Origin: Chloroflexia bacterium
GTDB lineage: Bacteria; Chloroflexota; Chloroflexia; DTKN01
Assembly (NCBI GenBank): GCA_034433695.1
Contig: DAOUAK010000038.1
Location: forward strand, 2,758 to 66,757
Direction of reading: 5' to 3'
Length of the DNA: 64,000 nt
The notes beneath the pieces are model-generated. The model was not told the DNA's origin and did not search any database. It worked only from the letters and a program-made list of their open reading frames with translations. Below are positions 35,672 through 40,235 of this stretch, one piece after another (position 1 is the first letter of the stretch; each line of letters opens with the position of its first letter). A program made the translations under genes and the position numbers.

Positions 35672-36946
35672 ATGGATGTACATGCCGTTCGCGCCGATTT
35701 TCCCATCCTCCAACGCACCGTCCACGGCAAGCCGCTCATCTACCTGGATAACGCGGCCACCACCCAGCGGCCGCGCCAGGTCCTGGAGACGCTGGTAACC
35801 TTCTACAGCCACTACAACGCCAACATCCACCGCTCTCCCCACCTTTTGGGCCAGGAAGCCACCCTGCTTTATGCGCAGGCCCACGAAAACGTGGCCCGCT
35901 TCATCGGGGCGGAGGACGAGGGGGAGGTGATCTTTGTCCGCAACACCACCGAAGCCGTCAACCTGGTGGCAAACTCGCTCCTGCGCCGCGAAAGCGGGCC
36001 GCTGCGGTTGCTGCCGGGCGATGAGGTGCTCATCACCGTCATGGAGCACCATTCCAACCTGGTGCCCTGGCAGGCCCTTTCCCAGGAGGCCGGCCTGACC
36101 TTGCGCGTGGTAGACATCCGGGAAGACGGCACCCTAGACCTGGCCGACCTGGAGGCCCAATTGGGGCCGCGCACCCGGCTGGTCTGCTGTGCCCACGTCT
36201 CCAACGTCCTGGGGACGATCAACCCGGTAGCGGAGATTGCCCGTCGGGTCCACGCATCCGGTGCCCTCCTTCTGGTGGATGGGGCGCAGTCGGTGCCCCA
36301 CATGCCGGTGAACGTGCGGGAACTGGAGTGCGACTTCCTGACCTTTTCCGGGCACAAGATGCTGGCCCCCTTCGGCATCGGCGTCCTCTACGGCCGGCGG
36401 GCCCTCCTAGAACGGATGGCTCCCTTCCTCTACGGCGGGGATATGATCGCCGATGTCACGCTGGAGCATTCCACCTGGAACGAGTTGCCCTGGAAGTTCG
36501 AGGCCGGAACGGCCAATGTGGCCGGCGGCATCGCCCTGGGCGGAGCCGTGGACCTCTGGAGCGGCCGGAAACTGGTGGGGGCCGTGGATTACCTCCAGGA
36601 GATCGGCATGGAGCAGGTCCAGGCTCACGAGCGGGAGTTGCTGGCCCAACTCCTGCAGGGACTCCAGGCTATCCCCCGCGTCCGCGTCTACGGCCCCCTG
36701 GAGCCGGAACGGCGGGGGGCAGCCGTCTCCTTCACGGTGGAGGGCAGCAACCCTCACCTGATCGCCCAGTTTCTGGACGACGAGGGCATCGCCGTGCGGG
36801 CCGGCGGCCATTGCGCCCACCCGTTGGCCCGGCGGTTGGGCGTGGCGGGAACGGTGCGCGTCAGCCCTTATATCTACAACACTTCCGAGGAAATCGAGCG
36901 CTTCCTGGATGTTCTGGAGGGAATTGTGAGGAGGCAGGCGCTGTGA
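35672..36946 (+). CDS. Cysteine desulfurase (class V aminotransferase, SufS/CsdA-like)
   Basis: YLDNAATTQRP, PLP-Lys in FSGHKMLAPFGIGVLYG, and active-site Cys in RAGGHCAHPL. Confidence 0.85.
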   Translation: MDVHAVRADFPILQRTVHGKPLIYLDNAATTQRPRQVLETLVTFYSHYNANIHRSPHLLGQEATLLYAQAHENVARFIGAEDEGEVIFVRNTTEAVNLVANSLLRRESGPLRLLPGDEVLITVMEHHSNLVPWQALSQEAGLTLRVVDIREDGTLDLADLEAQLGPRTRLVCCAHVSNVLGTINPVAEIARRVHASGALLLVDGAQSVPHMPVNVRELECDFLTFSGHKMLAPFGIGVLYGRRALLERMAPFLYGGDMIADVTLEHSTWNELPWKFEAGTANVAGGIALGGAVDLWSGRKLVGAVDYLQEIGMEQVQAHERELLAQLLQGLQAIPRVRVYGPLEPERRGAAVSFTVEGSNPHLIAQFLDDEGIAVRAGGHCAHPLARRLGVAGTVRVSPYIYNTSEEIERFLDVLEGIVRRQAL

Positions 36947-37332
36947 GTACCCGATATACCCCGACGCTGCTGGAGCACTTTACCCACCCCCGCCACGTAG
37001 GGATGCTGGAGGATGCCGACGCTTCCGGCCAGGGAGGGGGAGGACCGCTCTGTCCGGAGGATATGGCCTACGTCTGGATCAAGGTCCGCGAGGGCCGCAT
37101 CGTCGAAATCGGCCACAAGACGATGGGCTGCCCGGTCGCCATTGCCTCCAGCAGTCTGACCTGCTCCCTGGCCGAGGGCAAAACCCTGGAGGAGGCGCTC
37201 CAGATCACCCCGGAGGTGGTCATCGAGGCCCTGGGAGGCGTCCCGGAGCGCAAAGCCGATTCGGTGGTGGCTCCGGAAGCCCTGCGCCGGGCCATCGAAT
37301 CGTACCTGGCCTCCCATGTCTCGGGTGAATGA
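36943..37332 (+). CDS. IscU/NifU-N-like Fe-S scaffold homologue (atypical Cys set)
   Basis: The GTG overlaps the sufS-like stop (GTGA). Motifs HPRHVGML, LCPEDM and MGCPVAIASSSL are present. The usual HC near the C-terminus reads DS here. Confidence 0.7.
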   Translation: MSTRYTPTLLEHFTHPRHVGMLEDADASGQGGGGPLCPEDMAYVWIKVREGRIVEIGHKTMGCPVAIASSSLTCSLAEGKTLEEALQITPEVVIEALGGVPERKADSVVAPEALRRAIESYLASHVSGE

Positions 37333-37344
37333 ACCTCAAATCCT

Positions 37345-37367
37345 ATCGAGGGCCCAGGGCCCTCGAT
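37345..37367 (+). terminator. Hairpin terminator after the IscU-like gene
   Basis: ATCGAGGGCC (37345-37354), loop CAG, then GGCCCTCGAT (37358-37367). The stem is a perfect 10 bp. The downstream T tract is poor. Confidence 0.55.
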
Positions 37368-37405
37368 CTTCGGGTGCCGCCCTCCAACTGTGTAACCTAT
37401 CACAT

Positions 37406-37434
37406 TTGACAAAGGGAAGACTTCGTGGTATAGT
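37406..37434 (+). promoter_or_regulatory. Near-consensus sigma-70 promoter with extended -10
   Basis: TTGACA (37406-37411), a 17-nt spacer, then TGgTATAGT (-10 at 37429-37434). Confidence 0.7.
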
Positions 37435-37440
37435 TTATTT

Positions 37441-37582
37441 ATCCCCGTTCGGCCTGGCCGGCGGGGTTGGAGGTTGCGTTTCGATGGACGAGGATTATCA
37501 ACGTAGTCGGGGACTGTGCGAGTCCGGGTGCGGGGCATCCGACCCGGGGGAGGTGGCTATGCCGATAGCCACCTGATCTTTT
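37441..37582 (+). promoter_or_regulatory. Structured 5' leader ending in an intrinsic terminator (attenuator / candidate riboswitch) upstream of the MgtE-N/CBS-NRMT operon
   Basis: Local hairpins CCCCG...CGGGG and GGACU-GUGCG-AGUCC. The terminator is AGGTGGCTAT-GCCG-ATAGCCACCT (37551-37574) followed by GATCTTTT. Confidence 0.6.
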
Positions 37583-37719
37583 CCCCCGGTTCCCCCGCCT
37601 GAGGTCCCCCAGTCCCCTCCGAGATCGAAAGTACGCAAAACTTCAAAGCCATCTCATAGGATGTACAGGTGGAGTACCGGGTCCAGCCGTATGGGCCTGG
37701 GAACCACGGGAGGTGGACC

Positions 37720-38976
37720 GTGCCGTATGTCAGCACGCTCCTGGGGAAGCCTGTTACCGACGTGGAAGGCAACCGCGTCGGCCGGCTGCAGGACCTCGTT
37801 GCCTCGCTCCGGGGTGCCATGCCCCATCCCATGATTGTGGCCCTGGCCGTCCGGAATCCCGAGGGCCTTCGCCTGGTCCCCATTTCTTCCGTGGCCGTCC
37901 TGATCGCTCCGGCCATTCCCCTCCGCCATCGCCTGCGGGATATTCCCTCTTACACCCCGGGCGAGCAGGAACTGTACCTGGCCCGCGATGTGCTCGATAA
38001 GCAGATCATTGATACCCGTGGAGCGCGCGTGGTGCGGGTCAACGACCTGGAACTGGCCCGGATCAACAACCACTTTTATGTGGCCAATGTAGACGTCGGT
38101 GGGCTGGGACTTTTGCGACGCCTGGGACTTGCAGGCCCGGTCGAGAAGATCGCCCGCTGCCTGAAGCGCCCGCTCCGATCCGTCAGCATCTCCTGGGACG
38201 CGGTCGAACTCCTCCCTGGCCAGAACTCGATGCGCCTGAAGGTGCCGGGGGAGAAACTGGCCGAACTGCACCCGGCCGACCTGGCCGAAATCATCAGCGA
38301 CCTCAGCCGCGTTGAGGGAAGCCGGTTGATCGAGACACTCGATGTCAAGACCCTGGCCGATACCCTGGAGGAGATCGAGCCGGACTTCCAGGCCAGCCTG
38401 ATCGAAGCCATGCCCGACGAGAAGGTGGCCGATGTGCTGGAGGAAATGGCCCCCGACGAGGCGGCGGACCTTCTGGCCGAACTGCCCCAGGAACGCAGCC
38501 GGGAACTCCTGGAACTGATGGAGGATGAGGAGGCCGAGGACGTTCGGAAACTGCTGGCCTATCCGGAGGACACGGCCGGCGGCATTATGAACACCGAGTT
38601 CGTCGCCATCCGCCCCAACCTGACGGCGGAGGAGGCCATCGCCGTCCTGCGGGAGACGGCCCACGAGGCCGAGACCATCTATTACGTGTACGTTACGGAT
38701 GAGGAGGGCCATCTCCTGGGGGTGTTCTCCCTGCAGGACCTGGTGCTGGCCCAGCCCAAGACGCCGGTAACCGACTTTATGCACCACCGCGTGGTCAACG
38801 TCCATCTGCGCGACAGCCAGGACAAGGTGGCCCAGATCGTGGCCAAGTACAATTTGCTGGCCGTACCGGTGGTGGACGATGAGGGTCGGATGCACGGCAT
38901 CGTCACCGCCGATGACGCCCTGGATAAGATCATTCCCACCGCCTGGAAGAAACGCCTGCCGAAGATGTGGGGGTAA
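37720..38976 (+). CDS. Soluble protein with two PRC-barrel-like domains, an MgtE N-domain and a CBS pair, and no MgtE TM domain
   Basis: GTG 37720 lies 4 nt after GGGAGGTGG. The MgtE_N pattern is HPADLAEIISDL...EEMAPDEAADLLAELP...LLAYPEDTAGGIMNTEF. A CBS pair follows. The protein ends about 15 aa after the CBS pair (...IVTADDALDKIIPTAWKKRLPKMWG) and has no hydrophobic segments. Confidence 0.8.
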   Translation: MPYVSTLLGKPVTDVEGNRVGRLQDLVASLRGAMPHPMIVALAVRNPEGLRLVPISSVAVLIAPAIPLRHRLRDIPSYTPGEQELYLARDVLDKQIIDTRGARVVRVNDLELARINNHFYVANVDVGGLGLLRRLGLAGPVEKIARCLKRPLRSVSISWDAVELLPGQNSMRLKVPGEKLAELHPADLAEIISDLSRVEGSRLIETLDVKTLADTLEEIEPDFQASLIEAMPDEKVADVLEEMAPDEAADLLAELPQERSRELLELMEDEEAEDVRKLLAYPEDTAGGIMNTEFVAIRPNLTAEEAIAVLRETAHEAETIYYVYVTDEEGHLLGVFSLQDLVLAQPKTPVTDFMHHRVVNVHLRDSQDKVAQIVAKYNLLAVPVVDDEGRMHGIVTADDALDKIIPTAWKKRLPKMWG

Positions 38977-38978
38977 AG

Positions 38979-40235
38979 ATGACGTTCGGGCAACGTTTCA
39001 GGCCGTTCTGGGTACGCCTCCTGGCCTTCCTGTCGGTCATTGGGCCGGGCATCATCACCGCGAATGTGGATAACGATGCCGGCGGCATCACGACCTATTC
39101 CGTCGCCGGTGCCCACTATGGCTACGATCTGCTGTGGATGATGCCGCTGGTCGCGCTGGCCCTGATCGTGGTGCAGGAGATGAGTGCCCGGCTGGGAGTG
39201 GTCACCGGACGGGGGCTGGCCGCGCTGATTCGGGAGAACCTGGGGGCGCGCCTGACGGCGGTGGTCATCGGCATCCTGGTGCTGGCCAATCTGGCCAACA
39301 CGGTGAGCGAATTTGCCGGCATCGCCGCCGGCATGGAGATCTTCGGGGTCAGCAAGTACATTTCGGTGCCGCTGGCCGGCCTGGCGGTGTGGCTGCTCGT
39401 CATCCGGGGCAACTACCGTTCGGTGGAAAAGGTCTTCCTGGTGGCCAGCGGACTTTACCTTTGCTATGTGGCCTCGGGCCTCCTGGCCCGGCCCCGGTGG
39501 GAAGAGGTCCTCCACGCCCTTGTCCGGCCCTCCTTCCGCCTGGAGAGCGGCTTTATGACCATGGCCATCACCATCGTGGGAACGACAATCGCCCCCTGGA
39601 TGCAGTTCTACCAGCAGTCGGCCATCGCCGACAAGGGGTTGAAGCCGGCCGATTACCGTTACGAGCGGCTGGATGTGATCGTGGGCTCCCTCTTTGCCGT
39701 CTTTGTGGCGGCCTTTATCACCATTTCCTGCGCTGCCACCATCTACGGCCGCGCTCACATCGAGACGGCCCAGGACGCTGCCCGGGCGCTGGGTCCGCTG
39801 GCCGGCCCCTACGCTTCCACGCTCTTTGCCTTCGGCCTCCTCAATGCCTCGCTTTTTTCGGCAGCCATCTTGCCCCTCTCCACCGCCTATGTGGTCTGCG
39901 AAGCCTTCGGATGGGAATTGGGCCTGGGCCACCGGTGGAAGGAAGCCCCCATCTTCTTCGGGACTTTTACGGCCCTGATCGTCCTGGGAGGCGGGGTGGT
40001 CCTTTTGCCGATCCCTTCGCTGGTCCAGGCGATGATGTTCAGCCAGACCCTCAACGGCATCCTTCTGCCGCTCGTCCTGGTGGTGATGCTCCGCCTGGTC
40101 AACGACCGTCGCCTGATGGGCCATTTCGTCAATGGTCGGGTGCTCAATGCCTTCTCCTGGGCCTCGGCGGGATTGGTCATCCTGCTCACGGCCCTTCTGG
40201 TGCTCAGCCCCTTTCTGCCCGTTCCGGGCACTTGA
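38979..40235 (+). CDS. NRAMP-family transporter with a non-canonical metal site (NRMT-like, putative Mg2+ transporter)
   Basis: ATG 38979 follows GGGGGT (an alternative ATG is at 38967). The fold is NRAMP-like (GPGIITANVDNDAGG...YGYDLLWMM). TM1 reads D-A-G-G instead of D-P-G-N. TM6 reads GTTIAPW instead of GATVMPH. Confidence 0.75.
   Translation: MTFGQRFRPFWVRLLAFLSVIGPGIITANVDNDAGGITTYSVAGAHYGYDLLWMMPLVALALIVVQEMSARLGVVTGRGLAALIRENLGARLTAVVIGILVLANLANTVSEFAGIAAGMEIFGVSKYISVPLAGLAVWLLVIRGNYRSVEKVFLVASGLYLCYVASGLLARPRWEEVLHALVRPSFRLESGFMTMAITIVGTTIAPWMQFYQQSAIADKGLKPADYRYERLDVIVGSLFAVFVAAFITISCAATIYGRAHIETAQDAARALGPLAGPYASTLFAFGLLNASLFSAAILPLSTAYVVCEAFGWELGLGHRWKEAPIFFGTFTALIVLGGGVVLLPIPSLVQAMMFSQTLNGILLPLVLVVMLRLVNDRRLMGHFVNGRVLNAFSWASAGLVILLTALLVLSPFLPVPGT

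Follow-up and report, generated by a model that had tools for sequence, protein, structure and literature searches.

At positions 37720-40235 of a 64,000-nucleotide (nt) stretch of DNA from a Chloroflexia bacterium (contig DAOUAK010000038.1), to which we refer as the window, two genes follow each other on the forward strand. The first (gene 1) encodes a soluble protein related to the cytosolic part of the Mg2+ channel MgtE, and the second (gene 2) a predicted transporter of the SLC11 family that belongs with the NRAMP-related Mg2+ transporters (NRMTs). NRMTs form the fourth class of bacterial Mg2+ importers. The locus is almost certainly a Chloroflexi (Anaerolineae-like) copy of the published 'mgtE-nramp' operon, in which the NRMT gene comes after that of its conserved soluble partner. 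Here we describe both proteins, the conservation of the pair across genomes and the region in front of it, and we ask how the partner might act on the transporter.

Gene 2 carries the signature of an NRMT

Gene 2 (38979-40235, + strand) encodes 418 residues. The initial annotation placed its start within or right after the gene 1 stop codon, and the ATG at 38979 is indeed found 2 nt past it, with a G-rich stretch just 5' of the ATG. The NRAMP fold that had been assigned by eye is borne out by a Pfam Nramp (PF01566) match of 5.5e-103, which extends over profile positions 1-356 of 357. Among PDB sequences the best match was EleNRMT of Eggerthella lenta (7qia; 1e-117, 397 bits); canonical MntH/DraNramp chains scored around 1e-22, and the best canonical MntH reached 5.8e-23 with 85 bits.

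The metal site differs from that of canonical Nramps in the motifs of two helices. In transmembrane helix (TM) 1, D33-A34-G35-G36 (39075-39086, +) stands where canonical Nramps have DPGN, and in TM6, G201-T202-T203-I204-A205-P206-W207-M208 (39579-39602, +) takes the place of GA.VMPH. From the motifs VDNDAGG and GTTIAPW, the substitutions had been read as Asn to Gly, Met to Ala and Ala to Thr, a reading upheld by alignments to both DraNramp and EleNRMT. HMMER placed D-A-G-G opposite D-P-G-N and G-T-T-I-A-P-W opposite G-A-T-V-M-P-H of the DraNramp chains, and the manual residue assignment was therefore correct. The motifs NDAGG and GTTIAPWM are identical in EleNRMT, to which gene 2 is 48% identical overall (MAFFT).

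The initial annotation had also assigned this pattern to NRMTs, and it matches the published EleNRMT site of D55, G58, T224 and A227 (Ramanadane et al. 2022, eLife, PMC8806188). In gene 2 these residues are D33, G36 (Asn in Nramps), T202 (Ala in Nramps) and A205 (Met in Nramps). Also common to both proteins are the α3 glutamate (E111, E133 in EleNRMT), the α10 glutamine (Q356, Q379 in EleNRMT) and the tryptophan (W207, W229 in EleNRMT) that stands for the first α6b histidine of Nramps. The one difference noted lies at the second α6b histidine, where EleNRMT has N234 and gene 2 has Q212, neither of which is protonatable. Both α6b histidines, the proton-coupling residues of Nramps, are thus replaced in gene 2. 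EleNRMT transports Mg2+ and Mn2+ without H+ coupling, and its T224A mutant has lost Mg2+ transport (PMC8806188); for gene 2, transport is predicted.

When the signature columns were counted over 81 NRMTs, D33, G36, T202, A205, W207 and Q356 proved invariant in 80-81 of the 81: T202, A205 and W207 in 81/81, and D33 and G36 in 80/80 of those with that column. Judged by its sequence, gene 2 is clearly predicted to be an NRMT-type SLC11 transporter.

Gene 1 encodes the MgtE sensor without its pore

Gene 1 (37720-38976, +) lies in a reading frame that is open from 37669. Its likely start is the GTG at 37720, just behind the Shine-Dalgarno sequence GGGAGGTGG, and TAA at 38974-38976 ends the gene. 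Read from this GTG, the product has 418 residues and matches a database protein exactly (100% identity, 100% of the length), and the 119 next-best homologues are 408-428 residues long. Gene 1 is no chance reading frame, because it has more than 7,700 homologues, the top 120 of which have the same length and architecture. We likewise rejected the reading of gene 1 as a truncated pseudogene, given thousands of homologues with the same length and the same C-terminal end.

The complete cytosolic portion of MgtE had been recognized in gene 1 from the motifs HPADLAEII, EEMAPDEAADLL and YPEDTAGGIMNTEF. All three were found, and Pfam identified MgtE_N (4.8e-28), two CBS domains (2.3e-20) and, at the N-terminus, PRC (28.7 bits, cut-off 21.2). 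The MgtE N domain, defined by the Pfam match and by alignment to 2yvy, covers residues 183-284 (38266-38571, +), and the CBS pair residues 288-404 (38581-38931, +). Among solved structures, those nearest in sequence are 2yvy and 2oux, both of MgtE cytosolic domains (1e-45).

The TIGR00400 (mgtE) model matched at profile positions 25-252 of 450 only, with a score of 207.8 against a cut-off of 232.75; as the match ends at position 252, the pore half is absent from gene 1. The protein stops 14 residues past the second CBS domain, close to the 15 or so first estimated, in the tail IIPTAWKKRLPKMWG, and has neither a plug helix nor a membrane domain. Because the TIGR00400 match is partial and below the cut-off, and because so little sequence follows the CBS pair, gene 1 does not encode an MgtE transporter. 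Its basic tail (residues 405-418 and the stop codon, 38932-38976, +) replaces the acidic plug helix of MgtE. P406, T407, W409, K410, K411, R412 and P414 of the tail are invariant in Chloroflexi, and the tail is short in every phylum surveyed and often basic. Many of the pore-less homologues are labelled 'magnesium transporter' or 'magnesium transporter MgtE' in databases, a systematic mis-annotation.

The partner gene adjoins the NRMT gene across phyla

A degenerate-pattern scan with one genome per species yielded at least 596 NRMT loci, and the best 80 were analysed. They came from Chloroflexota, Syntrophales and other Desulfobacterota, Omnitrophota, Acidobacteriota, Nitrospirota, Planctomycetota, Firmicutes, Spirochaetota, Armatimonadota, Elusimicrobia and one Methanocellaceae archaeon. 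Four of them were set aside because a contig end lay too near the NRMT gene, which left 76 evaluable loci.

Conserved synteny, which the initial annotation had proposed to look for, was evident: in 69 of the 76 evaluable loci (91%), from more than ten phyla and including one archaeon, a homologue of gene 1 adjoined the NRMT gene. A complete partner gene lay directly upstream on the same strand in 63 loci. The partner was upstream and interrupted by a contig end in three further loci, split or frameshifted in one, downstream in one and convergent on the opposite strand in one; no partner matching the MgtE-N/CBS part was found in seven. In the locus with the downstream partner (L046:5853-8456), the partner gene overlaps the NRMT reading frame, and in the convergent case (L075:5979-8670) the pair is still adjacent despite the changed order.

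The gap between the partner and NRMT genes had a median of 36 nt and was at most 100 nt in 56/63 loci, compared with 2 nt in the window. The reverse direction gave the same picture, since all four gene 1 homologues with fetched contigs have an Nramp gene directly 3', with differing flanks. A Mantel test of partner against NRMT distances gave a correlation of r = 0.74, a value reached by 0/2000 permutations, and we conclude that the two genes travel together.

The genes around the pair are another matter. Upstream in the window, at 35672-37332 (+), are genes for a class-V aminotransferase (cysteine desulfurase-like, Pfam 6e-143) and a NifU_N/IscU-like protein, and an ABC transporter gene lies downstream of gene 2. 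None of these is conserved beside the pair in relatives. With such variable flanking genes, the pair constitutes a self-contained two-gene module. In L104/L105:491-6260, whose partner is 77% identical to gene 1, the pair sits between genes for an H+-pyrophosphatase and a P-type cation ATPase, which may be a cation-homeostasis neighbourhood.

The N-terminal region of the partner resembles a tandem PRC barrel

The first 176 residues of gene 1 form two β-domains, which the initial annotation took for two PRC-barrel repeats. For 66 orthologues drawn from many phyla, we analysed each half of this region separately. The first half, a PRC-barrel domain at residues 1-88 (37720-37983, +), is well defined: it had a Pfam PRC match in 54/66 orthologues, its AlphaFold2 (AF2) confidence (pLDDT) is 84-93, and its family profile matched PDB reaction-centre H chains and the archaeal PRC-barrel protein 8qzo (2.8e-5). 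The second half, at residues 89-176 (37984-38247, +), matched Pfam PRC in 6/66 orthologues only, with gene 1's own copy not among them, and its profile found no match when run against PDB sequences.

A direct BLASTP between the two halves gave no alignment, and the repeat was detected by profile-profile comparison only, with hhalign aligning first and second half at an E-value of 5.7e-5 and a probability of 66%, the second half carrying about 22 inserted residues. In a first AF2 run with close homologues only, confidence was low for the N-terminal 175 residues of gene 1, and it was restored when PRC-only sequences (described below) were added. The AF2 model gives the second half the same strand order as the first, plus a helical hairpin at residues 128-147. 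Fold searches were dominated by CBS matches. The annotation as two PRC domains thus stands for the first domain, on its Pfam score and its matches in 54/66 orthologues, and unevenly for the second. Taken together, profiles and model suggest one clear PRC barrel followed by what is most likely a diverged, insertion-bearing copy.

The second domain is well conserved for all its divergence from other PRC barrels. Its family motif LDKQI(I/V)DT.G..VVRVNDL...VDVG..GL.RRLG...ISW contains nearly invariant columns, and its mean identity to gene 1 across orthologues is 41%, against 44% for the CBS pair and 29% for the first PRC domain. The whole PRC region of about 175 residues was present in 63/63 complete upstream partners, which are about 405-435 residues long.

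One clade has the PRC region and nothing else of the partner. In this clade, of Elusimicrobia, a gene for a 200-residue PRC-only protein precedes the NRMT gene. The protein aligned to residues 3-163 of gene 1, and so to both β-domains, and lacks MgtE_N and CBS domains; the PRC module is thus kept beside the transporter where the sensor is missing. These loci are L043:4109-7233, L108:2733-5865 and L110:2203-5696, and the PRC-only gene sits there after the gene for a corC/CNNM Mg2+ transporter, in a phoH-ybeY-dagK-corC cluster.

PRC barrels have a general role as protein-interaction domains, and their partners are diverse, as in RimM, the reaction-centre H subunit and archaeal division proteins. 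To our knowledge, no function of PRC barrels in metal transport has been described, and our literature search found no paper that joined 'PRC-barrel' with 'MgtE'. Compared with other PRC-barrel proteins (PF05239; the reaction-centre H subunit, archaeal 8qzo and 8onw), the first domain of gene 1 matches by sequence profile, but it is fused to an MgtE sensor, and the second copy is strongly diverged and carries a helical insertion.

Interface Mg2+ ligands of the MgtE sensor are kept in the partner

We counted the conservation of metal ligands over 67 partners, with the site assignments of the T. thermophilus channel (TtMgtE) taken from Maruyama et al. 2018 (PMC5882242). The Mg6 ligand D95 is kept in 66/67 partners and is D250 in gene 1. 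Of the Mg4 ligands, D91 is kept in 54/67 (D246 in gene 1) and D247 in 55/67 (D399 in gene 1). The position of E59, a ligand of Mg7, is acidic in 49/67 partners and is D214 in gene 1, and D402 of gene 1 corresponds to TtMgtE D250.

Gene 1 and the MgtE channel (2yvx, 2yvy) therefore have the ligands of Mg4, Mg6 and Mg7 in common. MgtE also has a plug helix and a five-TM pore, and gene 1 has neither; sites Mg1 to Mg3 are absent from it, Mg5 is degraded, and the phenylalanine that stacks on ATP is replaced by leucine. Conversely, gene 1 has two added N-terminal PRC-like domains. Whereas regulation in MgtE acts in cis, any regulation by gene 1 would act on a separate polypeptide of the LeuT fold.

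M-box riboswitches precede some of the operons

No Rfam family reached its gathering score in the window, and no M-box was found at E<=10 in 37250-37800; M-boxes were also absent at four other Chloroflexi loci examined. Of 12 partner-containing loci that were sampled, four did have an M-box (RF00380) ahead of the partner-NRMT operon (L022:4417-4587, L059:68-234, L034:4448-4613 and L033:4128-4304); these belong to Firmicutes, Geobacterales and Terriglobia, and the scores were 131-151 bits. These M-boxes before the operons of relatives tie the module to Mg2+. They are not a defining feature of it, since the A. capsulatum pair also lacks one. A further M-box (L054:5554-5720) stands directly upstream of an NRMT gene without a partner gene.

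The region 5' of gene 1 is 387 nt long and contains three putative elements. A sigma-70-type promoter-like site at 37406-37434 (+), TTGACA-17 nt-TATAGT with TG before the -10 box and 11/12 matches, is the candidate promoter of the operon; one such site was found against 0.4 expected from shuffles. It is followed by a short reading frame of 30 codons at 37484-37576 (+), MDEDYQRSRGLCESGCGASDPGEVAMPIAT (MDEDYQRSRGL...), with GGAGG 10 nt before its ATG. Its TGA falls inside the 3' arm of a terminator-like hairpin at 37551-37584 (+), which has a stem of 10 base pairs (AGGTGGCTAT/ATAGCCACCT), a 4-nt loop and the tail GATCTTTTCC. A terminator function of this hairpin is uncertain because the U-tract is short.

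From the -35 box to the hairpin, the leader is about 90% identical in the nearest relatives (L084:2670-2860 and L102:4122-4310), and both flanks diverge. The -35 and -10 boxes are identical in these two, and the sequence further upstream is unrelated. Their hairpins keep the stem through two U-A to U-G changes and have a different loop. The short reading frame of L084 has the same length and frame; its first 11 codons are identical but for one synonymous change, and the remainder has nine amino-acid changes. This frame may encode a leader peptide, or it may just belong to a conserved RNA.

Compared with shuffled controls, the leader has a somewhat better fold (z = -2.6). When set against the leaders of partner-containing loci, from Chloroflexi and elsewhere, that encode NRMTs with 56-73% identity to gene 2, it showed no similarity. 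A metagenome scan with a degenerate pattern of the short reading frame gave 17 stretches, in which the only real copies were those of L093 and L102, nearly identical to that of L084; the others lie within unrelated genes. As the collections searched hold only two sequence variants, we conclude nothing on the structure or translation of the leader. In this lineage of Chloroflexi, the M-box might have given way to this conserved promoter, short reading frame and hairpin, which could act as a new, lineage-specific attenuator.

Relation to published operons

The initial annotation implied that both the pairing and its hypothesis of an action in trans were new. Both are already in Shin et al. 2014 (PLoS Genet, PMC4072509), who reported that most nrmT genes adjoin a gene for an MgtE cytoplasmic domain, named the arrangement 'mgtE-nramp operons', noted that M-boxes co-occur and proposed feedback regulation in trans or chaperone activity. 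Their operons (C. acetobutylicum Ca_c0685, A. capsulatum ACP2976/ACP2977) contain the same pair, with a pore-less, MgtE-like partner upstream. The A. capsulatum pair resembles the Chloroflexi locus in having no M-box. At Ca_c0685, in contrast, the partner is split into two genes and is riboswitch-controlled, neither of which is true of gene 1.

Shin et al. termed the partner a 'small protein' and left PRC domains unmentioned (PMC4072509), whereas gene 1 and the 63 complete partners have a tandem PRC-like region of about 175 residues within their 405-435 or so. Our literature search found no paper later than Shin et al. 2014 that discusses the partner, and the EleNRMT paper does not discuss the partner gene (PMC8806188). 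The locus itself is a typical example of a known system and offers no experimental handle that was not available before. What we add to the 2014 work are increments: the tandem PRC region as a universal and conserved feature, a record of which Mg2+ and ATP sites are retained or lost, the PRC-only variant and quantified synteny.

Discussion

How might a soluble MgtE-type sensor serve a transporter of an unrelated fold? By analogy with EleNRMT, gene 2 would import Mg2+, and also Mn2+, without proton coupling; NRMTs, according to the EleNRMT work, are uniporters that have no regulatory domain in the cytoplasm. A divalent-cation uniporter driven by the membrane potential would need feedback control, as do CorA and MgtE, and the partner could supply it in trans with the acidic ligands retained at its N-CBS interface. 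A rise in cytoplasmic Mg2+ would close the N domain against the CBS pair, as happens in MgtE. The sensor would be held at the cytoplasmic side of the NRMT by the tandem PRC module, perhaps with help from the basic C-terminal tail, and the Mg2+-closed partner would then inhibit transport as a detachable feedback subunit.

This hypothesis of gating in trans is a reasonable fit to the conserved synteny and to the conserved Mg2+ ligands. As a whole, the known mgtE-nramp operon with feedback in trans by the partner is the best explanation of the locus, and we lean slightly towards it. For the specific event at its centre, the docking of a Mg2+-closed partner on the uncoupled NRMT and its inhibition, we see even chances. 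Three of its elements we infer: that the partner would bind Mg2+, that it would make physical contact with the NRMT and that the effect would be inhibitory. More tentative is the proposal that the tandem PRC-like module is a dedicated NRMT docking adaptor, which would attach an MgtE-type clamp non-covalently to a LeuT-fold uniporter; we find it plausible but somewhat doubtful. That the PRC adaptor has a function of its own is indicated by the clade that keeps a PRC-only partner beside its NRMT.

Several observations weigh against this reading. Co-expression of A. capsulatum ACP2976/ACP2977 gave no extra rescue of a Mg2+-transport mutant, and the transporter rescued a Mn2+-transport defect (PMC4072509). 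The co-expression result is not decisive, because better rescue at low Mg2+ is not what one would expect from a negative regulator, and so it does not contradict an inhibitory role. EleNRMT and CabNRMT are active alone (PMC4072509, PMC8806188), and 7/76 evaluable NRMT loci have no full partner, so that the transporter can work without one. A search of 1.84 billion protein representatives revealed no partner-NRMT fusion among the best 150 NRMT representatives, the longest of which has 546 residues. Within the partner, Mg5 is degraded, D226 being N378 in gene 1 and Asn, Lys or Gly in most partners, and the Mg2/Mg3 ligands E258 and D259 are absent along with the plug helix. A docking role of the PRC domains is suggested by their association with the NRMT and by the general role of PRC barrels in interactions, and the interaction between partner and NRMT is itself something that we infer.

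The alternative that survives best concerns the metal. The system might mainly handle Mn2+ or another transition metal, with the partner responding to that metal and not to Mg2+. The NrmT-clade transporter of A. capsulatum, which is encoded beside a partner gene and is not preceded by an M-box, gave full rescue of a Mn2+ mutant but needed millimolar Mg2+ to rescue a Mg2+ mutant (PMC4072509); EleNRMT carries Mn2+ as well as Mg2+ (PMC8806188); and the operon in the window has no M-box. We nevertheless consider a Mn2+ system unlikely. The metal site of gene 2 is identical to that of EleNRMT, including T202, the equivalent of which is required for Mg2+ transport, and M-box riboswitches precede orthologous operons in four sampled lineages. 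Moreover, the carboxylate-only sites kept in the partner are Mg2+ binders in MgtE.

It is rather improbable that the partner, instead of gating the transporter, serves as a metal chaperone or buffer and passes ions to or from it. Free Mg2+ reaches millimolar concentration and is not known to depend on chaperones, and the PRC-only variants remain associated although they have no MgtE-type sites with which to bind metal. In MgtE, the homologous module is a low-affinity sensor (PMC5882242, PMC5529423). The chaperone alternative, raised by Shin et al. 2014 (PMC4072509), can draw on the acidic N domain with its several cation sites and on the close translational coupling of the two genes, which suggests roughly stoichiometric production.

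An equally slight chance attaches to the CBS pair as a sensor of adenine nucleotides, in which case the regulatory input would be the energy state and not Mg2+. CBS pairs often bind adenosine ligands. TtMgtE binds ATP through Y170, R187, D188, N203 and F227, and F227A abolishes this binding (PMC5529423). Y170 is kept in 51/67 and R187 in 46/67 partners, but F227 is replaced by leucine in 44/67 and in gene 1 (L379). Gene 1 also has Gln for R187 and His for N203, a position that is not conserved among partners.

Very improbable, finally, is an action of the partner on a target other than the NRMT, for example through its PRC barrels, with adjacency reflecting no more than co-regulation in Mg2+ homeostasis: the absence of fusions among the best 150 NRMT representatives, the activity of the transporter alone and the diverse proteins that PRC barrels bind elsewhere, some of them among our PDB profile matches, would agree with it, but the 91% adjacency over many phyla despite variable flanking genes, the short or overlapping gene junctions, the correlated divergence of both proteins and the PRC-only form that remains beside the NRMT gene do not.

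The significance of this single locus is modest. For the family, feedback of the partner on the NRMT in trans bears on a wider question, how an uncoupled NRMT avoids Mg2+ overload, to which the partner, nearly universal beside NRMTs, is the obvious candidate answer. If gating in trans is true, the sensor of MgtE would have found a second use, as a subunit of its own on a transporter of an unrelated fold, and PRC barrels would gain a role in transport.

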